Source: Ostreococcus lucimarinus
Taxonomy: Eukaryota
Length of the DNA: 64,000 nucleotides
Assembly: GCA_000092065.1 (NCBI GenBank)
Contig: CP000584.1
Reading direction: 5' to 3' (one strand)
Below, in pieces: positions 27,876-46,029 of this stretch (the stretch's first letter is position 1; the number at the start of each line of letters is the position of its first letter). Position numbers and translations under genes: made by a program. The notes under the pieces were generated by a model, which was given only the letters and a program-made list of their open reading frames with translations, did no database searches and was not told the DNA's origin.

Positions 27876-28369
27876 CGCGCGCGCGTGTGCCGTCGCGGCG
27901 GTTCGCGGCGGTCGCGTTCGATCGGCATCCGCGTCGTCGTCGTCGTCGGACGCGGGAAAAAATAGGAGGCCCGTCAGTGGAGATGAACATCAAACGGTCT
28001 ACGCGACTGCGTGCGCAGAAAATCGATCCGGCGCGCGCGGGCGCGGTGGCGTCGGTGTCGTTACGGGCTTCGCCCGGGCGGGCTGGGCAGAGAAAGTCAA
28101 CAACGGCGACGGCGTCGGCGCGAGGCGCGCCCGTAATCGCGTCGAAGATCGAGAAACGAAATCGTCGACGACGAAATTTCTCGTCTCGTCATCAAGGATA
28201 AATGCACTCGTCGTCTGCAGGACGCCGACTACGTTTTTTTTTCCGCGGCGACCTCAACCGGCGTTTCGTGGCTGTCGTTTTCTCGCGTCGTCTCGACGCC
28301 TCGGACGCGCGTGACGTCACTTTACGACGCCGACGCGACGACGCACCGACGACGACGACAACGAAAACG

Positions 28370-28972
28370 ATGACGATGACGACGAAAACGATCACCGGGG
28401 CGCTCGTGTGCGCGCTGGCGCTCTCGGCGATGGTGCCAACCTGTTTTGCTAAAGACGTGACGTGGGACGCGATGGCGGACGCCGCCGCGGCGCCGGCGCC
28501 GGCGCCGGCCGACGACGCCGCGGCCCCGGCCCCGGCGCCGACGATGGACGGCGAGCGCACCGTCGTTGACGTCGCGATCGAAGATCCGAGATTCGCGACG
28601 CTCGTCACCGCGGTGGTGGCGGTGCCCGAAGTTCTGGATACGCTCGAGACGCCGGGGCCTTGGACCGTCTTCGCGCCGAGCAACGAGGCCATCGCGACGT
28701 TTTTGGCCGAAAACGGATTGACCGCCGAACAACTCTTGGCTTCGCCTGGTTTGGGTGATGTGTTGAAGAAGCACGTCGTCGCGAGCAAACTTCTCGCCGC
28801 GGACGCGGTGAACGCCGTGAGCGCTGGACCGATTACGCTGACGACGTTGAACGGCGACGTCGACGCGCGCATGGTCGACGGAACGCTGTACGTCGGTGGC
28901 GCGGCCGTCGTCCAGGTGGACATCATGGCGGACAACGGCGTCGTACACGTGATCGATCGCGTGATTCAATGA
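28370..28972 (+). CDS. Secreted fasciclin (FAS1) domain protein with an N-terminal signal peptide
   Basis: ATG at 28370 (MTMTTKTITGALVCALALSAMVPTCFA). FAS1 core: TVFAPSNEAIATFL...LKKHVV...TLNGDVDARMVDGTLYVGGAAVVQVDIMADNGVVHVIDRVI. Confidence 0.75.
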   Translation: MTMTTKTITGALVCALALSAMVPTCFAKDVTWDAMADAAAAPAPAPADDAAAPAPAPTMDGERTVVDVAIEDPRFATLVTAVVAVPEVLDTLETPGPWTVFAPSNEAIATFLAENGLTAEQLLASPGLGDVLKKHVVASKLLAADAVNAVSAGPITLTTLNGDVDARMVDGTLYVGGAAVVQVDIMADNGVVHVIDRVIQ

Positions 28973-29132: not shown

Positions 29133-32100
29133 TCAGCTCGGAGTCGTCATGCACGTCGCGAGCTTCGTCGCGAGCGCGGCGACTTCGGGATCGACGGCGA
29201 TGCGCGCGGCGGTTTCGAGACCTTGACGCAAAGCCTCGAGGTGCGGCTCGATGGCTTTCAAAACGTCCTCGTCAGCCGCCAGCAAGGCGGTGGCGACTTT
29301 GGTGGCGCCCATTCGTGGGCCATCACCCGCGGCGTGGTCCCGAAGGATGTTTGTAACCGTTCGCACGAGCGTTACTGCGTGTGTTTCGTCCACGTCGCGC
29401 TCGGCGCCGTGGAAAATCATCATCAGCGCTTGGAGCGCCGCCGCGCGCACTTCTGGCTCGCCGCGGTGCTCGACGCAGGCGATGAGTGGAGGAAAACATT
29501 CGTCCATGAGCGAAGCCTTCTCGATCGACGGACGCCGCGCCGCAGCGATAATGACATTCATCATCGCGAGCCGCAACGACAAATCCTTCGTCAGCGCGTC
29601 GTCGACCCACTTTGGAACGCCTTCCTTTGTGTGGCACGCCAAATGCAACACGCCGCGAAGCGTCTCTCGCGCGCAATCAACGCGCTCGCGCGTGACGTCT
29701 TCATCACCATCCAACTCCACGATGAGCGCCCGACCTGAAGATGCTTTGCTTTCGTTCAGCGCGAGCAGAGGCGGTTTCGTATCGAGAAGCGCGCTCGACG
29801 TCTTCTTCTTCGCCGATTGATGAGGACTTTCCTTGCGTGCCTCGATCTCGGCGACGATGAGAGATGCCAGCGTTTCCATGGCGCCCATGTGTGCCTTGCT
29901 GAGCTCGACGTCGTCCTGTGCGTTATCGACCCACGTCAAAATGTCCATCGATAGACTCCTGACTTCGCGCCGCGAGCGTTCCGACAGTGCCGATTCTCCA
30001 CGAAGAGCGAGGGCGGAGTTGCACGAGAACATGCACGAGCGAACGCGGGCGAGATCATCGCTCACGCTTCGTGCTGTCTCTCTCAGGCGTCGCAAGTCCT
30101 CAAACAATTCTTCGTCCAAAATATTTTGCGGTAATCGTCCGAACATCTCCGAGCACACGCGGCGCACGTCTTCAAACTCACCGCGGATGTTCAACATTCG
30201 CCGTCGCATGCACTTTCGAATCGCGTCTTTGTTCTCGCTGGATTCATCCCACACCGCGACTGGAAGCACGCGCAAGAGTAAAAGTGGTGCTAAACGGTCG
30301 AAAACTTCACGCTCGTTTACGCCTTTATCGATGCTCTGCGTTGATAATTGTCGCGCGCACGCCTCGACAACGTAATCGCTCGCCGGCGGCTTTCCGATCC
30401 AGGGCGTCAGCGCCGCGACAGCCTGATGCAACGCGGACGAAGAGGGTGATCGAAAAATAGACGATGTCAACGTCTGAACGACACTTTTCCACTCATTCGC
30501 GCGCACGGTTTCAGCGAAACGTGATAGTAGCTTGACTGCGCGAGAGATTTTCTCCCCGAACGTCGCGACGTCGCTGGACATCGCCGGCGCGAGCAGAGTG
30601 GCAAAGTACGTATCAAGCGCCGCCGCGGGAGACGGTTGCTGTTGCAGCGTCGCCACGACGGCATCACCAGCTGCTGAACGCTCTTCCGAATCTTTTGACA
30701 GCAAAAGATCAACGAGCACTGGGAACACGTTCGACGGCGTCGCGTGCGCAAACACCTCGGCCGCCGCCTTGCGCGATTCCAAATCTCTGTCGCCCAACCT
30801 TGGAAGTATCGCGCGTGTCACCGTCGCGAGCGTCTCTGAGCTCAAATTCGACCCTTTCTGTCGCATGATTTCCATGAGCACGCGCAACGCGCTCACCTTC
30901 GCACTTCTCGAGCTCCCACCGCAAATCTGCAATATTCGCGTCAAGGATTCGTCGCGCGGATCTCTCGCGACTAAATCCGCGATGAGTCTCGCAAAGCCGG
31001 CGGAAATCACGTCGTCACCTTCTTCGACGAGTGGGAGCACTCCACCGAGAAGAGATTCGCTTTGTTCCGTCCATCCTAAGTGCTCGGGCGCGAGTACAAT
31101 GCGTATCAATACAGCCGCCACGCTTTGCGCGGTTTCGTTCGAGCAGCGAAGCGCCGGGAGCAGCGCAGATCCGGCGTACGTTTGCAACATCGAATCCAAT
31201 GTCGCAGCCGTCTCTTCGCTCACCATCGAAGATAAAACCTGACGATTTTCGTGATCGATGCCTATTCTCCCGAGGTGCAAACCCACCGTGATGAGTGCGT
31301 GCGCGACGCCGTCGCCCGCGCCCGCGTCGTCTGAATTCACCATCTCGCTCGCCGCGCCGAACGCCGATTCCAACGCCGTCACCATATCCCCATCCGAATT
31401 TTTAGACCTCACCGAGAGCGCAGGCACCCAATCACTCCACGCTCGATTAAACAAGCGCGATTTCACGCGCAACGCGCGCGCCGCCGCATCGTCGCCGCCC
31501 TCTACGTCGCGCGCGCTCGCCGCGAGCGACGCCAACCGCGCACGCGCCCTGTCGCAACACTCCCTAAACAATCCCGACGACCCGCGTTCGTCGACTCGCG
31601 CCCACGAGGACACGACACCGATTATTTCGTCGCACACCTCGAACGAATCCATCAACGTGCGCTCACCGCCGCTCGCACTTGCGTCCGAATCGTTCGCCGC
31701 CGCCGCTCGCGTACTCACCGCCGCGAACGCGTCCGCCGCGGCCGCGCTCAACCGCGTCGGTGACCCCGCCGCGCCCTCCCTCGCGATCGCCGCGAGCGAA
31801 ACTAAAACCCCTTTAACGTCAAACACGTCTTCCGCGCGCACGCCATCGCCGCGCGCGATCGCGCTCGTCCCCGCGCACGCCGCCAACGCCGCGCGCTTGT
31901 CCCGCGACGCGTCCAACTTCTTCATCACCGCCTCCCCCAGCGCGCGCGCGCTCGACCGCTCGCGCGCGAGCACGACCAAAACCGTTCGCGCGCCTCGCGA
32001 CGCGCTCGCGCGCTCGAGCGATGCGTCCACGACGGCGTCGACGTCGTCTCGAGCGTGCGCGCGCAGAAGATTCAATGCGCGCGCGACATCGCTCGTCGTC

Positions 32101-32270
32101 TCGTCGTCGAGAGACGACGACGCGCGCTTGAGCGACTTCGAATCGGCGTCGAAGACGACGCGAAGCGCGCTCGCGAGCGACGGCGTCGACGACGCCATCG
32201 CGCGCGCGTCTGACACCGCGGTTTGCGTCTGGTTCGACAGCGCGAAGCGACGCGCAAAGTTAACAATCAT
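29133..32270 (-). CDS. HEAT/ARM-repeat protein (about 1020-1045 aa), function unknown
   Basis: Long ORF of helical Leu/Ala-rich repeats (LLSKDSEERSAAGDAVVATLQQ, ILPRLGDRDLESRKAAAEVFAHA, etc.). Two candidate ATGs: 32270 (MIVNF...) and 32198 (MASSTPSLAS...). No catalytic motif was recognised. Confidence 0.55.
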   Translation of the reverse strand: MIVNFARRFALSNQTQTAVSDARAMASSTPSLASALRVVFDADSKSLKRASSSLDDETTSDVARALNLLRAHARDDVDAVVDASLERASASRGARTVLVVLARERSSARALGEAVMKKLDASRDKRAALAACAGTSAIARGDGVRAEDVFDVKGVLVSLAAIAREGAAGSPTRLSAAAADAFAAVSTRAAAANDSDASASGGERTLMDSFEVCDEIIGVVSSWARVDERGSSGLFRECCDRARARLASLAASARDVEGGDDAAARALRVKSRLFNRAWSDWVPALSVRSKNSDGDMVTALESAFGAASEMVNSDDAGAGDGVAHALITVGLHLGRIGIDHENRQVLSSMVSEETAATLDSMLQTYAGSALLPALRCSNETAQSVAAVLIRIVLAPEHLGWTEQSESLLGGVLPLVEEGDDVISAGFARLIADLVARDPRDESLTRILQICGGSSRSAKVSALRVLMEIMRQKGSNLSSETLATVTRAILPRLGDRDLESRKAAAEVFAHATPSNVFPVLVDLLLSKDSEERSAAGDAVVATLQQQPSPAAALDTYFATLLAPAMSSDVATFGEKISRAVKLLSRFAETVRANEWKSVVQTLTSSIFRSPSSSALHQAVAALTPWIGKPPASDYVVEACARQLSTQSIDKGVNEREVFDRLAPLLLLRVLPVAVWDESSENKDAIRKCMRRRMLNIRGEFEDVRRVCSEMFGRLPQNILDEELFEDLRRLRETARSVSDDLARVRSCMFSCNSALALRGESALSERSRREVRSLSMDILTWVDNAQDDVELSKAHMGAMETLASLIVAEIEARKESPHQSAKKKTSSALLDTKPPLLALNESKASSGRALIVELDGDEDVTRERVDCARETLRGVLHLACHTKEGVPKWVDDALTKDLSLRLAMMNVIIAAARRPSIEKASLMDECFPPLIACVEHRGEPEVRAAALQALMMIFHGAERDVDETHAVTLVRTVTNILRDHAAGDGPRMGATKVATALLAADEDVLKAIEPHLEALRQGLETAARIAVDPEVAALATKLATCMTTPS

Positions 32271-32373: not shown

Positions 32374-33417
32374 CTACTGATTTGGTCGCCACTTGGGCGT
32401 CTGCGGCGATTTCTGCAACACGCCGGATTCGCGGAAAGTCACGCTCACGCGTCTGTTTCCGTGTAAATTCTCGTTTGCGATGGAGTGCATGTAATCATAT
32501 CGCGTGCTACCGCTCTGAATCTGTAAGCTTCGTCGCGGCAACCGCACGTCGACGCGCTTGCTCGCAAACTTTTCGTGAGAATACGTCATCGTACAATCGC
32601 TGCAAAGCGACAGGTTAACGAGGATGTCACTCGAGAGCTGACGATCGTCACAGTGCGGAGTCAGCACCGAACCCAAGTCCTTGCGATAGTTGATCGCGTT
32701 GCACTCGTTCGGAGTGAAATGCTTCAACGTCTCGTGCGCCGCGGCGAATTTTGCGACGACGAGGTCTCGTAAAATCTTCGGCATCGGCACTCGCGCGGGC
32801 TCGACGCAGCGTTTCAATAGATTCGGCTCGACGCCGTACTTCTTCCCCTGATGCGCACCATTAAAACTCGAATCTCTCCACGGACCCGCGGCGATGTCGT
32901 CGTCCAGCCAGTCCACTATCCGTCGCTCCTCGTCCTCCGTGATGAAATTTTCCAAGATATAGTGCCCGGGGAGTTTCACCTTTGCCTGCAATTTCGCCCC
33001 GCGCGCGAGCGCCGCGAACGCATCCGACCTCGCGCCGTCGCTCCTCGCGCCGCATTCGCCCGCGCGCGCGATCCATCCGCCCTCCAAGTCATCTTTCGCC
33101 ACGAACCCCGTCGTCGTTCGTCCCGTGTGCGCGCGCCGTCCTCTGTAATCCTCTCGCACGTCCCTCCGCTTCTCGCTCGACGGCATCTTCCCCGCCTCGT
33201 CGCGCAGGCGCGGACGCTTTCCGTCGCACGCGCTCGCGTGCGCCTCGATCACCGCGCTCGACACGTGCCGCGAGCACATCGGGCACGGCACGAGCGTCGA
33301 CGGTTTTCGCGCCGATGCCGACGGCTTTCGAACGCCACCGCGCGTCGTCGTCGTCGTCGTCGACTTGGCGCGTCGCATGAGCGCTTGAAACGCATCGCGC
33401 GCGTCGTCGCGCGTCAT
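32374..33417 (-). CDS. AlkB-family 2OG-Fe(II) dioxygenase with an N-terminal UBZ4-type (Rad18-like) zinc finger
   Basis: ATG at 33417 (MTRDDARDAFQALMRR). UBZ4 pattern C-x2-C-x11-H-x3-C in LVPCPMCSRHVSSAVIEAHASACDG. AlkB core: GHYILENFITEDEERRIVDWLDDD, HxD in VLTPHCDDRQLSSDILVNLSL, second His in TRYDYMHSI, and RVSVTFRE (R-x5-R-like). Confidence 0.7.
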   Translation of the reverse strand: MTRDDARDAFQALMRRAKSTTTTTTRGGVRKPSASARKPSTLVPCPMCSRHVSSAVIEAHASACDGKRPRLRDEAGKMPSSEKRRDVREDYRGRRAHTGRTTTGFVAKDDLEGGWIARAGECGARSDGARSDAFAALARGAKLQAKVKLPGHYILENFITEDEERRIVDWLDDDIAAGPWRDSSFNGAHQGKKYGVEPNLLKRCVEPARVPMPKILRDLVVAKFAAAHETLKHFTPNECNAINYRKDLGSVLTPHCDDRQLSSDILVNLSLCSDCTMTYSHEKFASKRVDVRLPRRSLQIQSGSTRYDYMHSIANENLHGNRRVSVTFRESGVLQKSPQTPKWRPNQ

Positions 33418-33720
33418 CGTCCCGCGCGCGTCGCGCGCTGCCGCGCGTCGTCCGTCGTCCGTCGTCGTTGAGGGGGTCGCGATGAGTCCTCACTCAAGAA
33501 TGGATCTTCGAAGGTCCGTGTGTTACGTTGAAATGTTGAACCGTTACCGCGGGGTCGCGCTCGATCGCGCGCGCGCGCACACGACGACGCGCGCGCACGC
33601 CCGCGCACGCCCGCGAACGCACGAAGCGATCGCGCGCGCGACGATACGCGCGATCGAACGCGAACCGCGCGCGAACGCGACGGAACCGCGCGACGAACGG
33701 GCGCATTCGCGTCGAGCATT

Positions 33721-36714
33721 ATGATGATCTCTGGCGCGTCGGCGACGCTGCGACGCGACGCGACGGCGCGATGCGCGGGCGGGAGGACGACGCGCGCGCG
33801 CGCGACGATGAAACGCGCGATGGTGCGTCGGCGCGCGGTGTCGTCGACGGGAAACGCGGAGAAGGATGCGCGATCGGCGGTGTCGATCGAGATCGATACG
33901 ACGACGGAGGCGGATTACACGGTGATCCACATTCGAGACGCGCCGAATAAGCCCGGGACGCTGCGAGTGATCACCACGGCGCTGGCGGACTTGGGGTTGA
34001 ATATCGATAAGGCGATCGTGGACGCGGCGAACGACGATCGGGTGAGCGATTGCTTTCACGTGACGGATACGAGCGGGGCGAAGGTGACGGACGCGGAGGA
34101 CGTGGAGAACATTCGGACGTGCTTGGCGATGATTTTGAAGACACACTTCCAGAGCGGGAGCGATGTGGCGCGACACGATGGGGATGAACGTCGGAGCTCG
34201 GCGCCGCAAGGTACGGATGAGCGAAGACAGCACGACTTGTTGTATTCGCTCATGGACAGGTATCTGCGAAACGACGTGATGAGCGTGCAGGAGTCAATCG
34301 TGAATCACGTCGAGTACACGATGGCGAGAAATAGGTACCAGTTTGATGACTTTGAGGCGTACAACGCGGCCGCATTTTCGGTTCGCGATCGTCTCATCGA
34401 AAGCTGGAACGACACGCAGCAATACTTTCGAGAAAAGAGCCCGAAGCGCGTGTACTACATGTCGATGGAGTTTTTGATGGGTCGCTCGTTGTTGAACTCG
34501 CTGTACAACTTGGACATCAAGCCGCAGTACACCGAAGCGTTGCGTCAGCTTGGATACGAGTTAGAAACGCTCGTAGATAAGGAACGCGACGCCGCGCTCG
34601 GGAACGGTGGTTTAGGTCGCTTGGCTTCTTGCTTTTTGGACTCGATGGCGACTCAGGATCTTCCGGCGTGGGGGTACGGCATTCGATACCAGTATGGTAT
34701 GTTCCGTCAAACCGTGAACGATGGCTTCCAGCACGAGCACCCCGATTACTGGCTGAACTTTGGTAATCCTTGGGAAATCGAGCGTCCATACATCAGCTAT
34801 CCCATCAAGTTTTACGGCGGCGTAGAGAAACAAATCATCGACGGCCACGAAGTCAACAAGTGGGTGGGTGGCGAAGATATCAGCGCCGTAGCGTACGACA
34901 ACCCGATTCCGGGCTGGAACACGCCAACGACGATCAACCTCCGATTGTGGAGCGCGAAACCATCGCGGGAGTTTGACTTGGAGTCGTTTAACACCGGGGA
35001 TTACGTGCAAGCGATTTTGGCAAAGCAGCGCGCTGAAACGATTTCATCCGTGCTCTACCCGGACGATCGTACGTACCAAGGCAAAGAGCTTCGCTTGAAA
35101 CAGCAATACTTCATGGTGTCTGCCACCATCCAGGACATTATTCGCCGCTACTTGGTGAATCACGACTCGTTTGACGAGTTCCCGAACCAAGTCGCGGTGC
35201 AGCTGAACGATACGCATCCTTCTCTCGCCATCCCGGAGTTGTTGCGCCTGCTCATCGATGAGCATGGGCTTTCGGACACGAAGGCTTGGGAAATCACTTC
35301 GAAGGTCTTCAGTTTCACCAACCACACCGTGCTCGTGGATGCGCTCGAGAAATGGCCGGTCGATTTGCTCGAAAAGGTGCTCCCGCGCCACATGCAAATC
35401 ATTTACGAAATCAACTGGAAATTCATCAGCGATCTCAGCCAGAAGCGCGGCGAAGACTTTGCGCTCTTTGGTCGTACGAGCATCATCGAAGAAACTACGG
35501 AAGGAAAACTCGTGCGCATGGCGCACCTCGCCATGGTCGGCTGTCACACCGTGAATGGCGTGGCCGAGGTCCACAGCGAACTTCTCAAGACGCGCATGTT
35601 TCCAGACTTTTACGAGTTGGCGCCGGAGAAGTTTCAAAATAAGACAAACGGCGTCACCCAACGCCGCTGGCTCGCCTTCAGTAATCCGGCCCTCCGTGAT
35701 TTGATCTCCAGCAAACTTGGCGGCGACTCTTGGATTCGCGAATTGGACATGCTCCATGATTTGGACAAGTACGCTGAAGACCCCGAGTTCCAAGCGCAGT
35801 GGCGCGCCATCAAGCTCGAGAATAAGAAGAAGTTAACGAAATTGATCGAGGAAAAGACGGGGACAGTGGTGAGCCCAAACGCTTTGTTTGACATTCAAGT
35901 CAAGCGCATCCATGAGTACAAGCGTCAGTTGCTCAACGTATTCTCTGTGATTCACCGGTACAATAAGATCAAGGCGGCGACGCCGGAGGAGCGCAAAGAA
36001 ATGGTACCGCGCGTCGTCGTCATCGGCGGCAAGGCTGCGCCGGGTTACGACATGGCCAAGCGCATCATCAAGCTCGTCTGCGCGGTGGGGGAGAAGGTGA
36101 ACAACGACCCTGACGTGGGTGACTTGCTTAAGCTCGTTTTCATCCCCGACTACAACGTCAGTAGCGCCGAAGTCATCGTACCCGCTGCGGAGCTGTCCCA
36201 GCACATCTCCACCGCCGGCACGGAGGCGTCGGGAACGTCCAACATGAAGTTTGCCATGAACGGTTGCTTGATCATCGGCACCATGGACGGTTCCAACGTC
36301 GAAATCGCAGAAGAGATCGGCAAACGTAACATGTTCATCTTCGGTGCGAACTCGGCAGATGTCCCAATCTTGCGCTCGGAGCGCGCGCGCTTCAAGCCGC
36401 CGCCCGAATTCGACGGCATAGTCGAACAGATTCGCGGCGGCGCCTTTGATTGGGCAGACTTCCTCAATCCGGTGTGCGACGCCGTGCACGGTGGTGCCGA
36501 TTACTACTTGCTCGCAAACGACTTCGAGGATTACATCCGCGCCCAAGACCTCGTCGATGAAACATACAAGGATCAGGCCAAGTGGACCACGATGAGCATC
36601 AAATCCACCGCCGGTTCCGGCAAGTTTAGCAGCGACAGAACGATTCGCGAGTACGCTAAGGATATCTGGGGCATCGAACCGTGCCGCCGTCCGGAACCTG
36701 GAAATCCGCGATAA
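33721..36714 (+). CDS. Alpha-1,4-glucan (glycogen/starch) phosphorylase, GT35, with an N-terminal ACT domain
   Basis: ATG at 33721. Residues about 66-135 (YTVIHIRDAPNKPGTLRVITTALADLGLNIDKAIVDAANDDRVSDCFHVTDTSGAKVTD) fit the ACT fold. The canonical phosphorylase follows: FSVRDRLIESWNDTQQYF, YYMSMEFLMGR, EAALGNGGLGRLASCFLDS, TNHTVLVDALEKWP, PLP site region GTEASGTSNMKFAMNGCLIIGTMDGSNVEI. Confidence 0.9.
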   Translation: MMISGASATLRRDATARCAGGRTTRARATMKRAMVRRRAVSSTGNAEKDARSAVSIEIDTTTEADYTVIHIRDAPNKPGTLRVITTALADLGLNIDKAIVDAANDDRVSDCFHVTDTSGAKVTDAEDVENIRTCLAMILKTHFQSGSDVARHDGDERRSSAPQGTDERRQHDLLYSLMDRYLRNDVMSVQESIVNHVEYTMARNRYQFDDFEAYNAAAFSVRDRLIESWNDTQQYFREKSPKRVYYMSMEFLMGRSLLNSLYNLDIKPQYTEALRQLGYELETLVDKERDAALGNGGLGRLASCFLDSMATQDLPAWGYGIRYQYGMFRQTVNDGFQHEHPDYWLNFGNPWEIERPYISYPIKFYGGVEKQIIDGHEVNKWVGGEDISAVAYDNPIPGWNTPTTINLRLWSAKPSREFDLESFNTGDYVQAILAKQRAETISSVLYPDDRTYQGKELRLKQQYFMVSATIQDIIRRYLVNHDSFDEFPNQVAVQLNDTHPSLAIPELLRLLIDEHGLSDTKAWEITSKVFSFTNHTVLVDALEKWPVDLLEKVLPRHMQIIYEINWKFISDLSQKRGEDFALFGRTSIIEETTEGKLVRMAHLAMVGCHTVNGVAEVHSELLKTRMFPDFYELAPEKFQNKTNGVTQRRWLAFSNPALRDLISSKLGGDSWIRELDMLHDLDKYAEDPEFQAQWRAIKLENKKKLTKLIEEKTGTVVSPNALFDIQVKRIHEYKRQLLNVFSVIHRYNKIKAATPEERKEMVPRVVVIGGKAAPGYDMAKRIIKLVCAVGEKVNNDPDVGDLLKLVFIPDYNVSSAEVIVPAAELSQHISTAGTEASGTSNMKFAMNGCLIIGTMDGSNVEIAEEIGKRNMFIFGANSADVPILRSERARFKPPPEFDGIVEQIRGGAFDWADFLNPVCDAVHGGADYYLLANDFEDYIRAQDLVDETYKDQAKWTTMSIKSTAGSGKFSSDRTIREYAKDIWGIEPCRRPEPGNPR

Positions 36715-36762: not shown

Positions 36763-36893
36763 ATTCCATCTACACGCATCGTCCGTGCGCGCCGACCCCT
36801 CGCGTCCCGGTCAACTGTTTACTTTCAAAACGTCATCGTCGTCATCACCGGTCACCCTCAAACCTCGGCGTCGCGCGCTCGCGCGCCCCGGTC

Positions 36894-38846
36894 ATGATTC
36901 CAGACCTCTTACTCGCCCTCATGGGCGTCCCCGGCGACGTGTTCGAGCTCGATCCGACGTCGAACGACGCCGTCGTCGACCGACTCAGAGTCGCCGATGG
37001 CTTGCACTTTATAAAACGACACGAAGTCGAACGACTGAACGCCCTCGTGCGCGTCGGCGGCGCGTACCGAACGCTCGAACGCGTGACGACGATCGAAAGC
37101 ACGAAAGCGTCGTTCGCGACGACGCCGCAGTCGCTGTACCGACGAGCGCTCGCGATCGGAATTCAAGAAAGATTGCGCGAGTACGAGGAGGAAATTTTAA
37201 AACTGGAACAAGAGACGCTGCGACGAGGAACGACGAGCGGAGCGGTGAATGCGATCGAAAGCGCGCTGAGCGATGATGGTGCGGTGTTGACGATGATGTG
37301 CGAACGCTTTGTCTCGGTGTTTGAAGGGGAGAATGCGCTGAGGGGGGGAGATGTGATTCGACAAACGCGCGACGCGTGGCTTCGAGCGGGACATCCCGCG
37401 GCGCGCGAGGCGTGCGGGAGATTGTATTGGAAGGTGATGCAGGTGATGATGCAGCAATTGTTAGGGTGGTGTGCGCACGGGACGATCGTGGATCCGTACG
37501 ATGAGTTTTTCGTGCGGACGATCGCGCGGAAAGAGGGGTACGAGGTGAAGGATGACGCGAAGGATGACGGGAGCGTGATTTGGCACGAGAGCCATCGCGT
37601 GGCATTGGAACGTTTGCCGCCGGGGGTGGAGCTGTCCACGGCAGAGTCGGTGTCGTTCATCGGACGTGGCGTGCGTATACTGACACATCCGACGAGAGGT
37701 GGGAATATGCGTGGTCATTTCGATGCGGATGGGTACGCCATGCGCGCGACGTCGCGCATTCGGCGTCTCGCCGCGGCGGAGTCATTCGATCCTCGCGACT
37801 TTGAAGCGGAGGTGGAGGCTATGCGCTCGGAGATCGCGGCATCGTTGGGTGAGGTGTTGTTGAACGATTCTGGCTTGATATCGCACTTGAACGCGATGTG
37901 TGGGTTCTACTTTCTCGGAAAGGGTGACTTTTATACCACGTTTTTGGACGAGGCGCGCGAGCTCTTCTCGTTGCCACCCAAACCGGGAAGCGCGACGCGC
38001 GAGCTGTCCACGCCGTTCGCGCAAGCCGCCGTGAGTACGATCGTCGACGAAGCATTAGCATCAAGGTTTAGATTAGCGTACACGTCTGCGTTGACGCAGC
38101 AGTCTGAAGATGAAAAATCTTCGACAACCGCGACGCCGTCTAGCGCGTTTGTGCCTCGCGTGCGTATTCCCGAGTATGACGCTTGGGACGGCGTTAGCCT
38201 CGAGTGTGAGGTTCACTGGCCCATGGGTATTTTTCTCACAAACGACACCCTGGATAGATACAAGACGATATTTAAGTACCTCTTCCGGCTCAGGCGCGTG
38301 CACTTTGATCTTCAAGATGCGTGGATTCATTTACGTCGAAGCGGTTTGACGCGGACGCTTCGACTTCGTCACGTGATGGATCAGTTGATTGAAAACTGGC
38401 GCACGTATATTCAAGTCGATGTCATCGAAACGGAGTTCAAGAAAATGCTCGATAAGATTGCTGAAACGACGGATTTTAACAAGTGTGCGCTCGCACACCG
38501 GCAATATCTCGCCGCCATCATGGCGCACTCATTTCTCGACGTCGGTTCAATCATGACAATTTTCGAAGACATTTTCGGGCTCGCGCGAGAGCTGTGCGAG
38601 ACGAGCGCGCGATACGCCAACGGACAACCGCTACCTGCAGATTGGGACGAGCGCATCGCGTATCTGACTCGGCAGTTTGAAAAGAACTCTGTTGAACTTT
38701 ACGACAACTTGCGCGGCGGTTACGTCGTAGAACTGCCCGAATTGCGAGCGTTGTTGATGCGATTCAATTTCAACGAATTCTTCGAGAACACGACGTCGAT
38801 GGGGGTGAACTTGACCGCGATGAAGTTCGATAACCTAGATATGTAA
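36894..38846 (+). CDS. GCP4: Gamma-tubulin complex component 4 (GCP4/Spc97-Spc98 family)
   Basis: ATG at 36894. MIPDLLLALMGVPGDVFELD matches human GCP4 MIHELLLALSGYPGSIF. Family core: LISHLNAMCGFYFLGKGDFYTTFLDEA and KTIFKYLFRLRRVHFDLQDAWIHL. The 650-aa length fits GCP4. The TAA stop is embedded in a TGTAA signal at 38842-38846. Confidence 0.85.
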   Translation: MIPDLLLALMGVPGDVFELDPTSNDAVVDRLRVADGLHFIKRHEVERLNALVRVGGAYRTLERVTTIESTKASFATTPQSLYRRALAIGIQERLREYEEEILKLEQETLRRGTTSGAVNAIESALSDDGAVLTMMCERFVSVFEGENALRGGDVIRQTRDAWLRAGHPAAREACGRLYWKVMQVMMQQLLGWCAHGTIVDPYDEFFVRTIARKEGYEVKDDAKDDGSVIWHESHRVALERLPPGVELSTAESVSFIGRGVRILTHPTRGGNMRGHFDADGYAMRATSRIRRLAAAESFDPRDFEAEVEAMRSEIAASLGEVLLNDSGLISHLNAMCGFYFLGKGDFYTTFLDEARELFSLPPKPGSATRELSTPFAQAAVSTIVDEALASRFRLAYTSALTQQSEDEKSSTTATPSSAFVPRVRIPEYDAWDGVSLECEVHWPMGIFLTNDTLDRYKTIFKYLFRLRRVHFDLQDAWIHLRRSGLTRTLRLRHVMDQLIENWRTYIQVDVIETEFKKMLDKIAETTDFNKCALAHRQYLAAIMAHSFLDVGSIMTIFEDIFGLARELCETSARYANGQPLPADWDERIAYLTRQFEKNSVELYDNLRGGYVVELPELRALLMRFNFNEFFENTTSMGVNLTAMKFDNLDM

Positions 38847-38850
38847 AATA

Positions 38851-38922
38851 GAATGAGTGTTCATTACAACCCACTATGAAGAAATTGAATGAGTGTTCGT
38901 TACAACCCACTATGAAGAAATT
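38851..38922. repeat. Perfect-but-one 36-bp tandem duplication (2 copies) covering the last 7 codons, the stop and the TGTAA signal of the minus-strand M20 peptidase gene
   Basis: gaatgagtgttcattacaacccactatgaagaaatt / gaatgagtgttcgttacaacccactatgaagaaatt. Copy 2 (38887-38922) contains the real stop at 38900-38902. Copy 1 lies downstream in the 3' UTR between the convergent GCP4 and M20 genes. Confidence 0.8.
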
Positions 38923-40231
38923 CGAGCGCGTACATCGCGTGCAAAGCGACGCCAGACGTCAAGACGCTTTCATCCAGAATGTACTTCGTGCTATGCAAAG
39001 GATGCGTCGCACCGGCGGTTTCGTTGTACGCTCCGAGCCACATCATGGCAGATGGGTAAGTTTCCCCGAAAAACGAGAAATCTTCCGCGGGCATGACTGG
39101 CACGACGTCGCGCGTGCTCTCGCTTCCGAACAGTTGCGCGGCGACGTTCATCGCCAACCCTGCGGCTCGCGGGTCGTTCACCGTCGGTGGATACGGAATT
39201 CGCTTCACGCCATTGTGCTCAGGTTCAAAAGATGTCGCTGCCGTGCAACCGTGCGCGCTGGCGATGGCAGAAGCCATGTCGGCAATTTTCTGTTGAAATT
39301 TCGCAAAAGTCTTCGGATTGAGCGCTCGCAACGTGCCTTGCAAACTCGCCGTGTCTGGCATGATGTTGCTCGCCGTTCCCGAGTTGAACACGGTGACGCT
39401 GATCACCACGCTATCTAACGGATCCGTCAATCGACTCACGAGCGTCTGCAACGCGGTGACGATCGCGCTACCCGCGACGATGACGTCCACGTTGTTGTGC
39501 GGCACCGCCGCGTGTCCGCCGCGTCCGACGACGACGACGTCGAAGCTCCCCGCTCCAGCCATGATCGTTCCACCGCGCGTGCCCATCGTCCCACTCGGCA
39601 TTTCAGGATACGGCCAATTATGTAATCCAAACACGCTTTCAATCGGCGGTTTCAAATCCAGCATTCCCGTCGTCCCGTCGCTCGGCCGCAACATTTCCTT
39701 CGCCCCCGCCCCGCCTTCCTCCGCCGGTTGAAATATGAACCGCACCACTCCCGGCACGGACGTCTCATCCGCGTCGTACCTCGCCTTTATCACCTTCGCC
39801 GCGCCGAGTAACATCGCCACGTGTCCATCGTGTCCACACGCGTGCATTTTTCCATCGTTCTCGCTCGCGTACGCCAACCCGGTGTCCTCGCGCAGCGGCA
39901 GCGCGTCCATATCCGCTCTCAACCCCACGCTTCGTTCGCCTCGTCCGACGCGCGCGACGATCCCCGTGGACGTCACTCGGTCGTATTCGATCCCGTGCGC
40001 GTCGAGCTCGCGCGCGATGACGTCCGCGGTGGCGCGTTCGGTCCACATGAGTTCGGGATTTTTGTGGATTTCTCGTCGCAGGTCGACGACGTAATCGTGC
40101 GTCGCGCGCGATTGCGACAGGATTTCGCGCGCATCGACGTTTGATGACGACGCGGCGATATCGCGCAGCGTCGTCGCGTCCAGGGCGAGCGCCGCGGGGA
40201 CGTGGGCGAGGAAGAACAGCGCTCTGAGCAT
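38900..40231 (-). CDS. Peptidase M20D-family amidohydrolase (ILR1/IAA-amino-acid hydrolase-like) with a signal peptide
   Basis: ATG at 40231 (MLRALFFLAHVPAALALD). Motifs: MHACGHDGHVAMLLGAAKVIKAR, VRFIFQPAEEGGAGAKEM, LHNWPYPEMPSGTMGTRGGTIMAGAGSFDVVVVGRGGHAAVPHNNVD. The stop TAA at 38900-38902 lies inside a minus-strand TGTAA. Confidence 0.85.
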   Translation of the reverse strand: MLRALFFLAHVPAALALDATTLRDIAASSSNVDAREILSQSRATHDYVVDLRREIHKNPELMWTERATADVIARELDAHGIEYDRVTSTGIVARVGRGERSVGLRADMDALPLREDTGLAYASENDGKMHACGHDGHVAMLLGAAKVIKARYDADETSVPGVVRFIFQPAEEGGAGAKEMLRPSDGTTGMLDLKPPIESVFGLHNWPYPEMPSGTMGTRGGTIMAGAGSFDVVVVGRGGHAAVPHNNVDVIVAGSAIVTALQTLVSRLTDPLDSVVISVTVFNSGTASNIMPDTASLQGTLRALNPKTFAKFQQKIADMASAIASAHGCTAATSFEPEHNGVKRIPYPPTVNDPRAAGLAMNVAAQLFGSESTRDVVPVMPAEDFSFFGETYPSAMMWLGAYNETAGATHPLHSTKYILDESVLTSGVALHAMYALEFLHSGL

Positions 40232-40311: not shown

Positions 40312-42219
40312 CTAGTCTACGATGCGTATGCTCGGCGGGTGATGCGCCACTGCGGGCGGTGCGGCGACGCGCGCGCGAGCGGTGCGCTCGGCGACGACGG
40401 CGACGGCGGGCGAGGCGACGACGGCGCCGTCAAAGGCGCCGATTTTCCAGTAAAACGCCGCCAAGAGGAGGACGACGGGCCAGATGAGCTCGAAGTTCGG
40501 ACTGCTGGCGCAGTAGACGCACAACGCGTGGATGTGTTGTGCGATGCGATAGATGACGACGGCAGCGCGCGTCACACACGGGACGAGGACGTTTCGCGCG
40601 GCGGCTCGGAGGGCGAAGTAGACGCTGCCTCCGGGCGTGGCTTCTATGGCGAGATCGACGATTGGATCGTCTTCCTCTTCTTTAAACGTCTCCAGACGCC
40701 CGTGCGGTCCTATCGAGACGTCATGAAGATTGACGTGCTCGTGTGTTTCCGATTTCGTCGCGCGTCGGCGCGCATCCGATCGCATGGGCGCTTCGCCGAC
40801 GACGGACATCGCGCGGCGATTCGCCGCCGGCCTTCGCCGCCGCGGACTTCCTAAATCTCCCGGTTCAAGGCTGTACACGGACGTCCCGTCGTCGGACATG
40901 TCGTCGACTCGACTGAGAATTTCGCCCAGATCGCTTTCGTCGTCAAACGCGCTGCCGTCTATTTGGTTCATGGCTTGCAGCCAGCGCTGCGTGGCGATTT
41001 GCCGCGACGCCTCTGAACGCGCGAGCTCGTCTTGAACGTTGGTGAGTTGTTCTTCAAGCTGCGCTCGACGCATGTTCTCATCGGCGAGCCAGACGATGAA
41101 TCGTTTACGTCCACCGACGGATCCCATTTCCTCCTCGTCCTCGTCTTCTTGACCGAACTGAAATCGCATCTCGTCGACTATGCCCGACATCGCGTTTTCC
41201 ACGATGGCGCTCAGTTCGTGATTGATGGCATCCGTGACGCTCGACACGACTTGCTCGCCCTCGCGCTTATTCGTCTGCAGCGCGGGCGAATCCATCGCGC
41301 GCTCTAACGCCGATTTCACCGTCTCCAGGACGAGCTTCTCGACTTTACCTTCCCATACCTTCACCGCCGCCGTCGTTCGCTCCAACGGCGTCCCGCCGTC
41401 TCTCCGCTCTTCGCCATCCACCTGCGAATTCGTCGTCACCGATTCCGGGGCGCCACCGCGATTCTCCGTTTCCATCACTTGCAACAACGTCGTGCGAAGC
41501 TCACCGATGATGTCCGCCGCCTGCGAAAGCTTCTTCTCTTGTTCGCGAACCGTCTCCTCGGCTTCTTCGGCGCGTCGCGTCGCGTCCTCGTCCCGCTCCT
41601 CCCCCGCCCCTCGTTCGTACTCGCTCAATTTCTCCTCCAACGCCCGTCGCGCTCGCCTTTCGCTCTCCACGAGATCGAACAGCTCCTTCACCGTCTCATC
41701 CAGCGCCTCCTCCTCCTCCTCCTCCTCGTCCCGCGTCGCCGGCGTCTCCGTCCCCCTCGCGCGCAATTCCTCCCCCAATCGCGCGTTCTCCTCGCTCAAC
41801 CGCGCGTTCTCCCCCCGCTCTCGCGCCAACATCCGCACCGCCCCCCCCGCACCGTCCCTCGCGCCCTCCCATCCCGCCCGTTCCCTCGTCCCGTCTCGCC
41901 CGTCTCGCGCGTCCCGCGCGTCCCGCTTCAGCGCCTCTTCCGCCGCCCGCGTGCTCTCCAGCACGTCCTCCACGCGCACGCGCGCCCCGACCGTTCGTTC
42001 GCCCGCGTTCGCGCTTCCCTCGCGCGTCGTCGCGCGCTTCCCTCGCGTCGTCGCGCCGTCCCGTCGCTTCGCGCGCGTCGTCGCGCCGCGCGTCTCGCGA
42101 TGGCGCGTCTTCCCCTCGTCGTCGCGGCCGACGAACGGGTACCGCGCCGACGTCGTCGGCATCGCGCGACGCGCGCGATCGATCGACGCGTCGTCGTCGA
42201 ACACGCGCGTCGTCCGCAT
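40312..42219 (-). CDS. Acidic coiled-coil protein with a C-terminal hydrophobic segment (tail-anchored-like); function unknown
   Basis: Candidate ATG at 42219 (MRTTRVFDDD); other candidates at 42528 (ORF-track start, codon not checked) and 42162. Long Glu/Arg/Leu heptad-like middle (ENARLSEENARLGEELRARG...ERRARRALEEKLSEYERG...). Near the C-terminus: AAVVIYRIAQHIHALCVYCASSPNFELIWPVVLLLAAFYWKIGAF. The exact ends are uncertain. The plus-strand ORFs at 41222..42315 are antisense artefacts. Confidence 0.4.
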   Translation of the reverse strand: MRTTRVFDDDASIDRARRAMPTTSARYPFVGRDDEGKTRHRETRGATTRAKRRDGATTRGKRATTREGSANAGERTVGARVRVEDVLESTRAAEEALKRDARDARDGRDGTRERAGWEGARDGAGGAVRMLARERGENARLSEENARLGEELRARGTETPATRDEEEEEEEALDETVKELFDLVESERRARRALEEKLSEYERGAGEERDEDATRRAEEAEETVREQEKKLSQAADIIGELRTTLLQVMETENRGGAPESVTTNSQVDGEERRDGGTPLERTTAAVKVWEGKVEKLVLETVKSALERAMDSPALQTNKREGEQVVSSVTDAINHELSAIVENAMSGIVDEMRFQFGQEDEDEEEMGSVGGRKRFIVWLADENMRRAQLEEQLTNVQDELARSEASRQIATQRWLQAMNQIDGSAFDDESDLGEILSRVDDMSDDGTSVYSLEPGDLGSPRRRRPAANRRAMSVVGEAPMRSDARRRATKSETHEHVNLHDVSIGPHGRLETFKEEEDDPIVDLAIEATPGGSVYFALRAAARNVLVPCVTRAAVVIYRIAQHIHALCVYCASSPNFELIWPVVLLLAAFYWKIGAFDGAVVASPAVAVVAERTARARVAAPPAVAHHPPSIRIVD

Positions 42220-42605
42220 CGCGCGCCCGCGAGTGCGCGTCGCGCGCGAATGAATGGAATGAACGAATGCGCGTCGCGAATGCGCCGAAGTGGTAAGTCC
42301 GTGTGTGAGACTTAGTCTCGAATCGTCGCGCGACCGGTCCGTGTGTGCGACTCGACGCGCGTGAGACGCGCGCGACGGCGGCGGCGCCGGCGTCGAGGCG
42401 CGCGACGACGCGACGCGGTGAACGAGTGTGCGCGCGGCGACGCGCGTTCTGAGAATACATCGTCCGAACTTGATCACGGTAATACGTGCGAGAAGGATCA
42501 CCGAACGTCGAGCGCGACGCGAGCGCATCGCGCGCGCATCGGGGCGCGGGGCGCAGAAGGAGGGATCGACGGCGACGAGAGCGACGCGCGAACGATACGG
42601 CGAGG

Positions 42606-44339
42606 ATGGCGTACCCGACGCTGACGAGCGGGGCGGCGATCGCGACGGTGGAGGCGACGACGCTGTTTTTTTTCGTCGTCGCGATGGCGTTCGCGGTGCG
42701 GAGGGAGGATGGGACGCGGATGACGGCGACTGAGTTCGCGAGGGCGGCGAAGAAGCCGAACGTGCGATGGATGTCGGCGAAGAACTCGCTGCCGTGGCAA
42801 CAGGTGGGGCTGTCGTACTTCGCGGGAGGTATGGGGGCGTGGGTGTACTACGGCACGACCGAGATGGGCGCGAACACGCGGTTGTCGTGGTGGGGGGTGT
42901 TCGGGTACTCGTTCGCGAGCGCGTCGCCGGCGATTTTGATGATCTTCATCGCGCCGACGATCAAGGCGTTCGTGGGCGACAAGAATGGGTTCTCGGTGAC
43001 TGATTTCGCGCTCACGCGATTCGGTCGTTGCATGCAACTCGTCGCCGCGTTCATGAGCACGATGTATCTGTTCATCTTCTTGTGCGCGGAAATTTCCACC
43101 ATCGCCAACGTCGCCGCGCTCTTCTCCGACGTGCAGGGTGCGGAATCCAAGTACTCTCGCGACGTCATTCTCGGCACGGTCTGCGTCATCACGCTTTCGT
43201 ACACCATGATTGCGGGTTTACCCGCGTCCGTGATCACCGATCGCGTGCAAGGCGTGATGATTACCGGTTTCATGTTGCTCTTCAGCTGCGTCGTGCTCGC
43301 GAAGAACGAAGTCACCGCGACGCAGATGCGCGCGGTGTCCAAGTCCACCACGAACGGGTTTGTCGTCATGATCACTCTGATCATCGCTACCCTCGGCGCA
43401 GAATTATTCAACGCCGGTCAGTGGCAGCGCGTGTACGCCGCCCGTTCCACGCAAGATCTTCGCAAAGGTCTCGCGTTGGGCGCCGGTATGATTTTTGTCG
43501 TCATGTGGTTCTTCGGTATTCTCGGTGTCACCGCCGTGGCCAAGTACCGCGCCGATTTCGACGACTTCTCCAGGCTCCATTACCTTGCGTTCTTCGAACT
43601 CGCCGAAGGTCTCGCAAAGGGTTGGCACGTAATCATTCTGATTTTTGCAACCTCGCTTTGCGTGAGTTCGGTGGATTCCATCCAAAACGGCTTAACTTCT
43701 GTGTTATACCGTGACATCTTGAACTACGATCTTCCAGCAAACTCGGTGCGAGTAATTTGCGCTGCGTTGAATGTCGGTGCCATTTTCGTCGCCGTCGATA
43801 AGATTGACGTCTTGTCTCTCTTTTTGATGGTTGACTTGGTGTGCGCGCTCGCCGCGCCGGCGCTCTACCTCGGTCTCATCCGCAAAGACATCAACTCCTT
43901 CATCATCGCACCGACCGAGCTCGGTGCAATCATGGGCGTTGTGTGTGGCTGCATCGCCGTCATCGTTCAAGGCGCCGTCCTCGATTTGGACGGCGCGTGG
44001 ACCGATAAGTACGGCGCGGTGCACTCCACCAGGGCCGCGGCCATGGTTAACCCGCCGATTGTTCACCGCGCGTGGGGTCCGTTTGGAAACTTTTGGCTTC
44101 CGGACGGCACAACCATCGAAGGCGGTGGCTTGCAAGCCTTTGGCGGCAAGCGCACTCTCCTCACGTTCATCCTCGCCGTCGTCTTCTCTGCTTTCGGTAC
44201 CATGTTCTTCTCTTGGCTCGACGTGTACTTTCGCGGCGAATCCGCCCGTAAACCGTTGATTAAAGTCAAGTTGCTCAAGAAGGGCAGGACAGGCATCGAG
44301 GAGAAACCTCTCGAGGCAGTCGAGACGACGACGGTGTAA
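42606..44339 (+). CDS. Sodium:solute symporter (SSS) family transporter, possibly DUR3-like (urea/polyamine)
   Basis: ATG at 42606 (MAYPTLTSGAAIATVEATTLFFFVVAMAF). About 13-15 hydrophobic segments across 577 aa. An SSS-type loop (WQQVGLSYFAGGMGAWVYYGTTEMG) is followed by ...TDFALTRFGR... with the same architecture as plant DUR3. Family call from pattern memory only. Confidence 0.6.
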   Translation: MAYPTLTSGAAIATVEATTLFFFVVAMAFAVRREDGTRMTATEFARAAKKPNVRWMSAKNSLPWQQVGLSYFAGGMGAWVYYGTTEMGANTRLSWWGVFGYSFASASPAILMIFIAPTIKAFVGDKNGFSVTDFALTRFGRCMQLVAAFMSTMYLFIFLCAEISTIANVAALFSDVQGAESKYSRDVILGTVCVITLSYTMIAGLPASVITDRVQGVMITGFMLLFSCVVLAKNEVTATQMRAVSKSTTNGFVVMITLIIATLGAELFNAGQWQRVYAARSTQDLRKGLALGAGMIFVVMWFFGILGVTAVAKYRADFDDFSRLHYLAFFELAEGLAKGWHVIILIFATSLCVSSVDSIQNGLTSVLYRDILNYDLPANSVRVICAALNVGAIFVAVDKIDVLSLFLMVDLVCALAAPALYLGLIRKDINSFIIAPTELGAIMGVVCGCIAVIVQGAVLDLDGAWTDKYGAVHSTRAAAMVNPPIVHRAWGPFGNFWLPDGTTIEGGGLQAFGGKRTLLTFILAVVFSAFGTMFFSWLDVYFRGESARKPLIKVKLLKKGRTGIEEKPLEAVETTTV

Positions 44340-45887: not shown

Positions 45888-46029
45888 GCGGGCGCGTCGC
45901 GACGCCGCGCGCGTCGGAGTGTCGATTCGTCTGCCGAGTGTGCTATTTTGGGACGCGCGCGCGCGCGTCACTGCGCGGCGCGCGCGGCGCGTCGACGATC
46001 GAGGGCGGCGACGAGGCTTTAAAATTACC

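Follow-up and report, generated by a model that had tools for sequence, protein, structure and literature searches.

A GlnD/ACR-class ACT domain at the N-terminus of a PHO3/PhoB-type alpha-glucan phosphorylase in Ostreococcus lucimarinus

The locus encodes a full-length GT35 phosphorylase

The window analysed here, a 64,000-nucleotide stretch of Ostreococcus lucimarinus contig CP000584.1 (assembly GCA_000092065.1), carries a complete single-exon phosphorylase gene whose features are listed in Table 1. The stretch that had drawn attention in the original prediction (33721-34200) corresponds to amino acids (aa) 1-160 of an uninterrupted 997-aa ORF. The product is laid out as a disordered basic presequence, an ACT domain, a flexible linker and a full catalytic body, and Pfam, NCBIfam and structural modelling all bore out the earlier proposal of a GT35 alpha-glucan phosphorylase with an ACT domain between a transit-peptide-like start and the body. 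The whole protein matched TIGR02093 with 1117.7 bits (cutoff 552.9) and Pfam family PF00343 with 1033 bits (E=0), covering profile positions 1-713. A 99.9 % identical product, named 'starch phosphorylase', is encoded on many marine contigs, numbering in the hundreds. The O. tauri protein Q01B38 was 80.6 % identical, and three phosphorylase loci have been listed for that species (PMC3056741).

Table 1. Features of the phosphorylase gene and its product, with positions in the window
Feature	Position	Strand	Residues (aa)	Basis
Complete single-exon CDS, PHO3/PhoB-type alpha-1,4-glucan phosphorylase	33721..36714	+	997 aa + stop	ORF list
Presumed plastid transit peptide, basic, Ala/Arg/Thr/Ser-rich	33721..33873	+	1-51	Composition, disorder, low conservation
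ACT domain	33883..34161	+	55-147	Pfam ACT, AlphaFold2 fold
Strand-to-helix-1 glycine loop, N-K-P-G-T-L	33946..33963	+	76-81	Corresponds to DRPGLL of ACR/GlnD
Strand-4 motif, D-C-F-H-V-T-D-T-S-G-A-K	34048..34083	+	110-121	D.FyV...G.K common to ACR/GlnD ACT domains
Flexible linker, little conserved, includes R151	34162..34215	+	148-165	pLDDT, identity
GT35 phosphorylase body	34216..36711	+	166-997	Catalytic and PLP motifs intact, without L78/L80 insertion
Lys843, expected pyridoxal-phosphate Schiff-base lysine in EASGTSNMK	36247..36249	+	843	Invariant in 64 orthologues

The body contained the motifs GNGGLGRLA (residue 294), NDTHP (496), TNHT (533), KRIHEYKRQ (728) and EASGTSNMK (835), of which GNGGLGRLA, TNHT, KRIHEYKRQ and EASGTSNMK were invariant across 64 orthologues. 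The role of Lys843 is assigned from other GT35 enzymes, where its counterpart is Lys680 of rabbit muscle phosphorylase. From residue 185 onward the protein aligned to residues 23-835 of rabbit muscle glycogen phosphorylase (GP). Judged by these matches, the product is predicted to be a full-length GT35 alpha-glucan phosphorylase with an intact catalytic body. The L78 insertion was absent, as the original prediction had implied: the 713 Pfam profile positions mapped onto 712 residues, leaving no insertion relative to PF00343, and the sequence RRYLVNHDSFDEFPNQVAVQLNDTHP was uninterrupted. Against Pho1 chains the alignment broke into two stretches; Pho2 and GP chains gave a single one. Plant PHO1/PHS1 enzymes, of which those of barley, potato and rice have been solved, are plastidial GT35 proteins that share the catalytic core (the solved chains scored approximately 917-929 bits), but they carry a mid-sequence L80 insertion of 50-82 aa and lack an ACT domain, the reverse of the arrangement seen in Ostreococcus. 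A PHO1-type enzyme was rejected on the missing insertion.

Residues 1-50 included 10 Arg, 2 Lys, 11 Ala, 6 Thr and 4 Ser as opposed to three acidic residues. The presequence was modelled by AlphaFold2 without secondary structure (pLDDT of approximately 30), and across 63 orthologues its mean identity was 13.8 %, compared with 67 % for the body. The orthologues Chlamydomonas PhoB (CrPhoB) and Lotus PHO3 (LjPHO3) are plastidial (PMC5005325), and the Ostreococcus enzyme is presumed to be so on the strength of its sequence. The linker between the ACT domain and the N-terminal helix of the body was similarly disordered (pLDDT <50 at residues 146-159) and variable (mean identity 15 %), with the exception of the nearly invariant R151.

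The N-terminal extension is an ACT domain of the GlnD/ACR class

Within the whole protein, the Pfam ACT model PF01842 matched aa 73-121 with 28.9 bits, above its gathering cutoff of 27. The N-terminus alone scored 32.4-34.5 bits (E down to 1.7e-8), and 34 of 43 orthologous N-termini matched the same model individually. The AlphaFold2 model placed strands at residues 55-59, 67-75, 94-103 and 107-115 and helices at 80-90 and 125-147, with pLDDT of approximately 80-89. The four strands formed an antiparallel sheet and both helices lay on the same side of it, the ferredoxin-like fold of ACT domains, so that both the family match and the fold that had been anticipated for this segment were recovered. 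At approximately 93 aa the domain is larger than the segment of roughly 70 aa first proposed, because it begins with an additional strand and its second helix is long. The motif pattern described at that time is literally present within aa 66-121, as YTVIHIR, NKPGTL, DLGLNI and DCFHVTDTSGAK, except that the part given as A-I-T reads KAIVDAA.

The strand-to-helix-1 glycine loop is the usual ligand or interface loop of ACT domains. Across 64 orthologues sharing the extension, T67, the loop residues G79 and L81, L91, A98, G119 and the linker residue R151 were conserved in at least 90 %, and F112 of the strand-4 motif was invariant. The nearest ACR and GlnD relatives likewise displayed the strand-4 consensus D.FyV...G.K. 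Among Ostreococcus-like orthologues, identity across the ACT domain was 66-81 %, compared with 25-32 % for the presequence.

Searched on their own against PDB sequences, the N-terminal 180 aa gave no significant match, and the best PDB profile match was a weak one to the ACT domain of Rel (E 0.011). In a fold search, the best structural matches were plant bHLH ACT-like domains; the corresponding Pfam model, PF22754, was also matched by 27 of 43 clade members. A word-indexed search with an ACT-only profile returned 21 short fragments, which were uninformative on other fusion partners.

Several lines of evidence spoke to the subclass of the domain. The only NCBIfam models that matched the N-terminus were GlnD equivalogs (E 1.3e-12). 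The 150 nearest ACT domains were also drawn from 1.84 billion representatives, and we inspected the 86 largest: 67 matched the ACR9-type ACT model, 30 matched ACR10_N and 13 were GlnD, whilst nine also matched the AHAS-small-subunit-type model. Domains of aspartokinase, PGDH or other amino-acid-biosynthesis enzymes were not found among these 86. A profile of the PHO3 ACT domain scored 46.4 bits against Escherichia coli GlnD, covering both of its ACT domains, compared with 13.1 for SerA, 11.5 for RelA, 10.2 for IlvH and 0.9 for PheA, where the best of 2000 shuffles reached 6.6 bits. Taken on sequence, the Ostreococcus domain is assigned to the GlnD/ACR class, which is linked to glutamine sensing, and it is this assignment that our analysis adds to the published architecture. 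ACT domains of the aspartokinase, SerA and AHAS types were rejected on the NCBIfam matches, nearest relatives and profile scores. GlnD (PII uridylyltransferase), which bears its ACT domains at the C-terminus, and plant ACR proteins have nearly identical consensus motifs, but carry two to four tandem ACT domains per chain and other output domains. The Ostreococcus protein has a single ACT domain; for pairing, the second subunit of the enzyme dimer would need to supply the other.

The architecture is conserved across the green lineage and previously described

Dozens of green-lineage orthologues were found to combine an ACT domain with a phosphorylase, spanning chlorophytes, prasinophytes, streptophyte algae, bryophytes, a fern and a gymnosperm. 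Members included Chlamydomonas PhoB, Volvox, Chlorella, Ulva, Bryopsis, Cymbomonas, Klebsormidium, Chara, Mesostigma, Chlorokybus, Marchantia, Adiantum and Araucaria. The best named homologues were CrPhoB-type proteins, all with the ACT extension. The closest known systems are Chlamydomonas reinhardtii PhoB/STA4 (Q2VA41, Cre12.g552200) and Lotus japonicus PHO3, which share the presequence, the single N-terminal ACT domain and a GT35 body without L78. CrPhoB was 62 % identical to the Ostreococcus protein over 974 aa and its ACT motifs aligned column for column. Relative to these two proteins, Ostreococcus displays a 1-aa insertion in the PG(L)L loop, where Thr also takes the place of Leu, as well as RH in place of the conserved RP following the ACT domain. 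Sequence comparison places the protein within the PHO3/PhoB type, and we consider it very probable that it is orthologous to the PHO3/PhoB(STA4) enzymes with their N-terminal ACT domain.

In reviews of plastidial phosphorylase the focus is on L80, and an ACT domain goes unmentioned (PMC12267944), so a reader could reasonably find the fusion unusual, and the original prediction had presented it as an unusual regulatory solution. That view falls, because the combination recurs across the green lineage and is already in print: the PHO3/PHOB clade was published with an O. lucimarinus sequence explicitly included (PMC5005325), and the ACT domain was noted again for STA4/PhoB (PMC11190351). The silence of the reviews could be taken to favour a lineage-specific novelty, an annotation artefact or a chance resemblance to ACT domains, an explanation we hold to be extremely improbable. 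A gene-fusion or annotation artefact was rejected on the uninterrupted ORF, the recurrence of the same protein on hundreds of contigs and its conservation in more than 60 orthologues; a chance motif was rejected since HMM, fold and profile evidence were all significant; and retention of the architecture from prasinophytes to a gymnosperm, together with its prior publication, argues against novelty. The ACT-bearing phosphorylase is thus real, conserved and already known, and its detection here is recognition of a published architecture rather than discovery. The literature on PHO3/PHOB(STA4) includes Wu 2015, Qin et al. 2016 and Scholtysek et al. 2024.

Possible functions of the ACT domain

Because GT35 phosphorylases form homodimers, their ACT domains, each tethered through a flexible linker, would probably pair across the phosphorylase dimer. 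At the NKPG(T/L)L loop or close to it, the pair may bind a small metabolite that reports nitrogen status, with glutamine or another amino acid as the likeliest candidate, and ligand binding would alter enzyme activity or partner binding, coupling starch metabolism to nitrogen status. On balance we lean slightly towards a PHO3/PhoB orthologue with an amino-acid-sensing ACT pair as the best overall explanation. Whether the domain acts as a small-molecule sensor at all appears to be an even call, and glutamine as its specific ligand is a tentative suggestion.

The closest functional precedent is the Chlamydomonas alpha-amylase AMA2, which has an N-terminal ACT domain and is activated by glutamine, although its catalytic domain is a GH13 amylase and differs from GT35. 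AMA2 and CrPhoB share D/N-R/K-P-G-L...F motifs at an equal spacing of 31 residues, and the matching of the phosphorylase to AMA2 residues D106, L110 and F141 is by motif and spacing only. AMA2 lost almost all of its glutamine response when Leu110 was mutated, and the Ostreococcus residue so matched to it is Thr80; this and the 1-aa loop insertion count against glutamine sensing in Ostreococcus. Glutamine responsiveness is known for GlnD and AMA2 only, and the ACT domain of STA4 may have a different role from that of AMA2 (PMC11190351). Recombinant LjPHO3 showed no activity after purification, whether or not it carried the presequence (PMC5005325), and an effect of the ACT domain was consequently not measurable in that protein.

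A serious rival, if on the whole an unlikely one, is that the domain serves as a ligand-independent module for dimerisation or protein interaction, which would strengthen or reshape the dimer or recruit branching enzyme, DPE1, starch synthases or free ACR-type proteins. The PF22754 matches are in keeping with such a role, and the bHLH ACT-like domains recovered by the fold search are dimerisation modules without a known ligand, which counts against a sensor. PhoB has been proposed to reside within a multienzyme complex, and the inactivity of LjPHO3 alone led its authors to infer that additional factors are required (PMC5005325). Against this, the domain is closest in sequence to those of GlnD and ACR proteins, its most conserved positions fall in two elements common to that class, namely the glycine loop and strand-4 motif, and GT35 enzymes already dimerise without an ACT domain, as their solved dimers attest.

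Capture of STA4/PhoB by cGMP-affinity chromatography bears on this rival and on another, in which the domain senses a carbon or signalling metabolite other than an amino acid, such as ADP-glucose, another nucleotide or a sugar phosphate. Retention on the resin would suit a nucleotide ligand, but the captured starch enzymes that were tested all failed to respond to cGMP and to other nucleotides, and their binding was judged to be indirect, via complexes (PMC11190351), as an interaction module would predict. ADP-glucose inhibits the Chlamydomonas phosphorylases, yet rice Pho1, for which no ACT domain is described, is reported to be inhibited by it as well (PMC11190351). The ACT fold does occur in some domains of nucleotide-signalling enzymes, among them the C-terminal domain of Rel/RelA, which provided the best, if weak, PDB match; with the PHO3-ACT profile, however, RelA scored far below GlnD. 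We therefore regard a non-amino-acid ligand as improbable.

Returning to amino-acid sensing, nitrogen starvation is the condition in which the phenotype of the Chlamydomonas sta4 (PhoB) mutant becomes apparent (PMC5005325, citing Dauvillee 2006). A speculative extension is that the PHO3/PhoB ACT domain is a glutamine sensor switching activity or complex formation and that, with AMA2, it would constitute a conserved enzyme-level nitrogen-to-starch control layer of the green lineage; if true, this would account for a sta4 phenotype seen only in nitrogen-starved cells. Whether plastidial phosphorylase acts in starch synthesis or degradation is still debated (PMC12267944), and ACT-bearing PHO3/PhoB enzymes are mostly ignored in that debate. 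The GlnD/ACR class offers a concrete and cheap biochemical hypothesis, namely that glutamine or another amino acid modulates PhoB/PHO3.

The extension shares its attachment point, the N-terminal end of a common fold, with the regulatory tails of animal and yeast glycogen phosphorylases, which are phosphorylated at Ser14 and Thr-10, respectively; residue 185 of the Ostreococcus protein corresponds to rabbit residue 23 and approximately to yeast residue 41. Those tails are short phosphorylatable peptides with no folded ligand-binding domain, and the analogy is in position only. The LjPHO genes contain 14-19 introns, whilst the Ostreococcus gene has none and provides a compact, intron-free gene for testing amino-acid modulation.

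ACT domain of the phosphorylase

The segment at 33721-34200 corresponded to codons 1-160 of a single, uninterrupted ORF encoding a PHO3/PhoB-type starch phosphorylase, in a window of ~60 % GC with tightly packed long ORFs. Hundreds of contigs from marine metagenomes and genomes encoded 'starch phosphorylase' proteins 99.9 % identical to it, and Ostreococcus tauri Q01B38 ('starch phosphorylase 3') displayed 80.6 % identity. Pfam placed the carbohydrate phosphorylase domain (PF00343) at aa 274-985 (E=0). The complete set of GT35 hallmark motifs, including the PLP lysine (K843 in EASGTSNMK), was present and invariant in 64 orthologues; from its sequence, the phosphorylase, presumably plastidial, is apparently active. 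The L78/L80 insertion of plant PHO1 was not found, with Pfam profile positions 1-713 matched by 712 residues. Solved plant Pho1 chains aligned to the protein in two split stretches, and Pho2, animal and yeast enzymes in one.

Pfam ACT (PF01842) matched aa 73-121, scoring 28.9 bits when the whole protein was searched and 32.4-34.5 bits with the N-terminus alone, above the gathering cutoff of 27 bits. AlphaFold2 models were built for the first 151 aa, from a 43-sequence alignment, and for the full protein, from a 64-sequence alignment. The two agreed in the order of elements, with strands at 55-59, 67-75, 94-103 and 107-115, helices at 80-90 and 125-147, and pLDDT of ~80-89 across the ACT domain. 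Both the HMM search and the modelled fold therefore uphold the original prediction of an ACT domain between a transit-peptide-like start and the GT35 body; a chance match was excluded by the Pfam, fold and profile evidence, and an artefact by the unbroken ORF, its recurrence on hundreds of contigs and its conservation in over 60 orthologues. The first 50 aa contained 12 basic and 3 acidic residues and abundant Ala, Thr and Ser. Mean identity to 63 orthologues rose from 13.8 % in the presequence, the least conserved part, through 35.5 % in the ACT domain to 67.2 % in the body, and this composition and low conservation fit the pattern of a transit peptide. None of the solved phosphorylases reaches N-terminal of residue ~184. 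Residue 185 aligned with residue 23 of rabbit muscle phosphorylase, so the ACT domain is attached where animal and yeast phosphorylases carry phosphorylatable N-terminal regulatory tails.

Features of the phosphorylase and its neighbours
Feature	Position	Strand	Details
Class-3 lipase	25791..27875	-	
Fasciclin-domain protein	28202..28972	+	
HEAT-repeat protein	29133..32270	-	1045 aa
AlkB-like 2OG-Fe(II) oxygenase	32374..33417	-	divergent neighbour; PF13532, aa 154-329
Phosphorylase ORF	33721..36714	+	997 aa
Presequence	aa 1-51	+	disordered in AlphaFold2 models
Linker between ACT and body	aa 146-165	+	low confidence in AlphaFold2
Phosphorylase body	from ~aa 166	+	AlphaFold2 model
Gamma-tubulin complex component	36891..38846	+	GCP_N + GCP_C
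M20 peptidase (ILR1-like amidohydrolase)	38900..40231	-	
Dihydrouridine synthase	44559..46031	-	

Distribution in the green lineage

The full-length protein search returned many green-lineage proteins with precomputed ACT-type Pfam families alongside PF00343, from chlorophytes (Chlamydomonas reinhardtii Q2VA41, Volvox, Gonium, Chlorella, Micractinium, Auxenochlorella, Ulva, Bryopsis), prasinophytes (Cymbomonas), streptophyte algae (Klebsormidium, Chara, Closterium, Mesostigma, Chlorokybus) and a gymnosperm (Araucaria). Nearly all of the best 120 matches had 160-200 aa before the GNGGLGRL motif, and these extensions, including those of Marchantia, Sphagnum and the fern Adiantum, were alignable across the entire ACT domain. 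Pfam ACT independently matched 34 of 43 N-termini. The clade consensus was V..DN..D...TVI...A.NRPGLL...T..F.DLGLDV.KA.V....G...D.FYV....G.K, with F112 invariant and T67, G79, L81, L91, A98, G119 and R151 at least 90 % conserved. In the precomputed annotations, most PHO3-type proteins carried a newer Pfam accession, PF26956, over their ACT region, as did small ACT fragments.

The O. lucimarinus protein departed from this consensus by two Ostreococcus-specific changes in the putative ligand loop (aa 73-81, 33937..33963), namely a 1-aa insertion (IRDAPNKPG versus I.-A.NRPG) and Thr80 in place of Leu, and by R-H in place of the near-invariant R-P just past ACT helix 2 (aa 151-152, 34171..34176). 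Six homologues (P0040, P0051, P0054, P0075, P0084 and P0102; ~790 aa, 73-75 % identical) lacked the ACT domain and started only ~70 residues before GNGGLGRL; these may be truncated calls (e.g. an intron-separated ACT exon in other Mamiellales) or true ACT-less paralogues. Many metagenome calls of the O. tauri-type orthologue (P0004) were 1340 aa rather than the curated 992 aa, and the ~350 extra N-terminal aa probably arose when prokaryote-style ORF calling, applied to GC-rich DNA, extended the frame upstream.

The architecture is thus commonplace among green-lineage phosphorylases and has been described in the literature, and the suggestion of an unusual regulatory solution does not hold. Qin et al. 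(PMC5005325), citing Wu et al. 2015, placed Lotus japonicus LjPHO3 in a subclade with PHOB of O. lucimarinus and C. reinhardtii; LjPHO3 lacks L78, is chloroplast-located and was inactive as purified recombinant protein, and its overexpression reduced leaf starch. A 2025 review of plastidial phosphorylases cites Qin et al. and leaves the ACT domain unmentioned (PMC12267944). Scholtysek et al. 2024 (PMC11190351) pointed out the N-terminal ACT of STA4/PhoB, the effect of which 'has ... not been analyzed', and showed that glutamine activates the Chlamydomonas alpha-amylase AMA2 through its N-terminal ACT. The remaining interest lies in the putative ACT ligand, and the class assignment made here points to a direct experiment.

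Class and possible role of the ACT domain

Of 18,950 NCBIfam models, the only ones to match the N-terminus were equivalogs of GlnD (PII uridylyltransferase; E 1.3e-12), through their C-terminal ACT region. When the ACT segment was compared exhaustively by phmmer with 1.84 billion representatives, 598 proteins were retrieved at E<=1e-3. Among the matches listed of at least 250 aa (n=86), 67 carried an ACR9-type ACT model, 30 ACR10_N and nine additionally an AHAS-small-subunit-type ACT model; 13 were GlnD (GlnD_UR_UTase and HD domains), three were phosphorylases, and none carried domains of aspartokinase, PGDH or other amino-acid-biosynthesis enzymes. The consensus of these nearest relatives was nearly that of the PHO3 ACT domains. 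As a specificity control, a profile built from PHO3 ACT domains only was scored against E. coli ACT proteins, giving 46.4 bits for GlnD (ACT2 28.7, ACT1 15.0, near full length), 13.1 for SerA, 11.5 for RelA, 10.2 for IlvH, 0.9 for PheA and -1.5 for TyrA, with nothing reported for ThrA or LysC and a best score of 6.6 among 2000 shuffled GlnD C-termini. By these sequence comparisons, the PHO3/PhoB ACT domain is assigned to the GlnD/ACR class, which is linked to glutamine sensing.

The models and sequence comparisons show a conserved, folded GlnD/ACR-type ACT domain, which a predicted flexible linker ties to the body's N-terminal helix. GT35 enzymes are homodimers, and the two single ACT domains would therefore probably pair; such pairing was predicted by AlphaFold for AMA2 dimers (PMC11190351). 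Near the conserved N-(K/R)-P-G-(L/T)-L loop, the pair may accommodate an amino acid as ligand, with Gln the most plausible, and binding could alter phosphorylase activity or partner binding, tying starch turnover to nitrogen status. The sta4 phenotype is specific to nitrogen starvation (PMC5005325), consistent with a nitrogen-linked sensor.

Several observations count against this mechanism. AMA2 Leu110, required for the Gln response, corresponds by motif and spacing to Thr80, beside the loop insertion, and the authors of the AMA2 study suspect that the ACT domain of STA4 serves another purpose (PMC11190351). In fold comparison, the closest structural matches of the O. lucimarinus ACT domain were dimerisation modules not known to bind a ligand. 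The main rival is a ligand-independent dimerisation or recruitment module; we consider this a possible explanation, albeit the less probable one. Sensing of a non-amino-acid ligand ranks lower still and appears unlikely; a cGMP resin captured STA4, and the starch enzymes tested in that study were unaffected by nucleotides (PMC11190351).

Neighbouring genes

The lipase, fasciclin, HEAT-repeat, M20 peptidase and dihydrouridine synthase neighbours had no obvious link to starch metabolism, and ORFs of 738 aa (40312..42528, -) and 617 aa (42486..44339, +) had no Pfam match at E<=1e-3. The AlkB-like gene shares a CG-rich spacer of ~300 bp (33418..33720) with the phosphorylase gene; its product has an N-terminal zinc-finger-like C-x2-C...H-x3-C motif (VPCPMCSRHVSSAVIEAHASAC) and a poly-Thr run from a (GTC)n tract (~33347-33365). 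The gamma-tubulin complex gene starts <200 bp past the phosphorylase stop codon, and the mechanical ORF that contains it opens at 36681, within the last part of the phosphorylase CDS, reflecting very tight gene packing.
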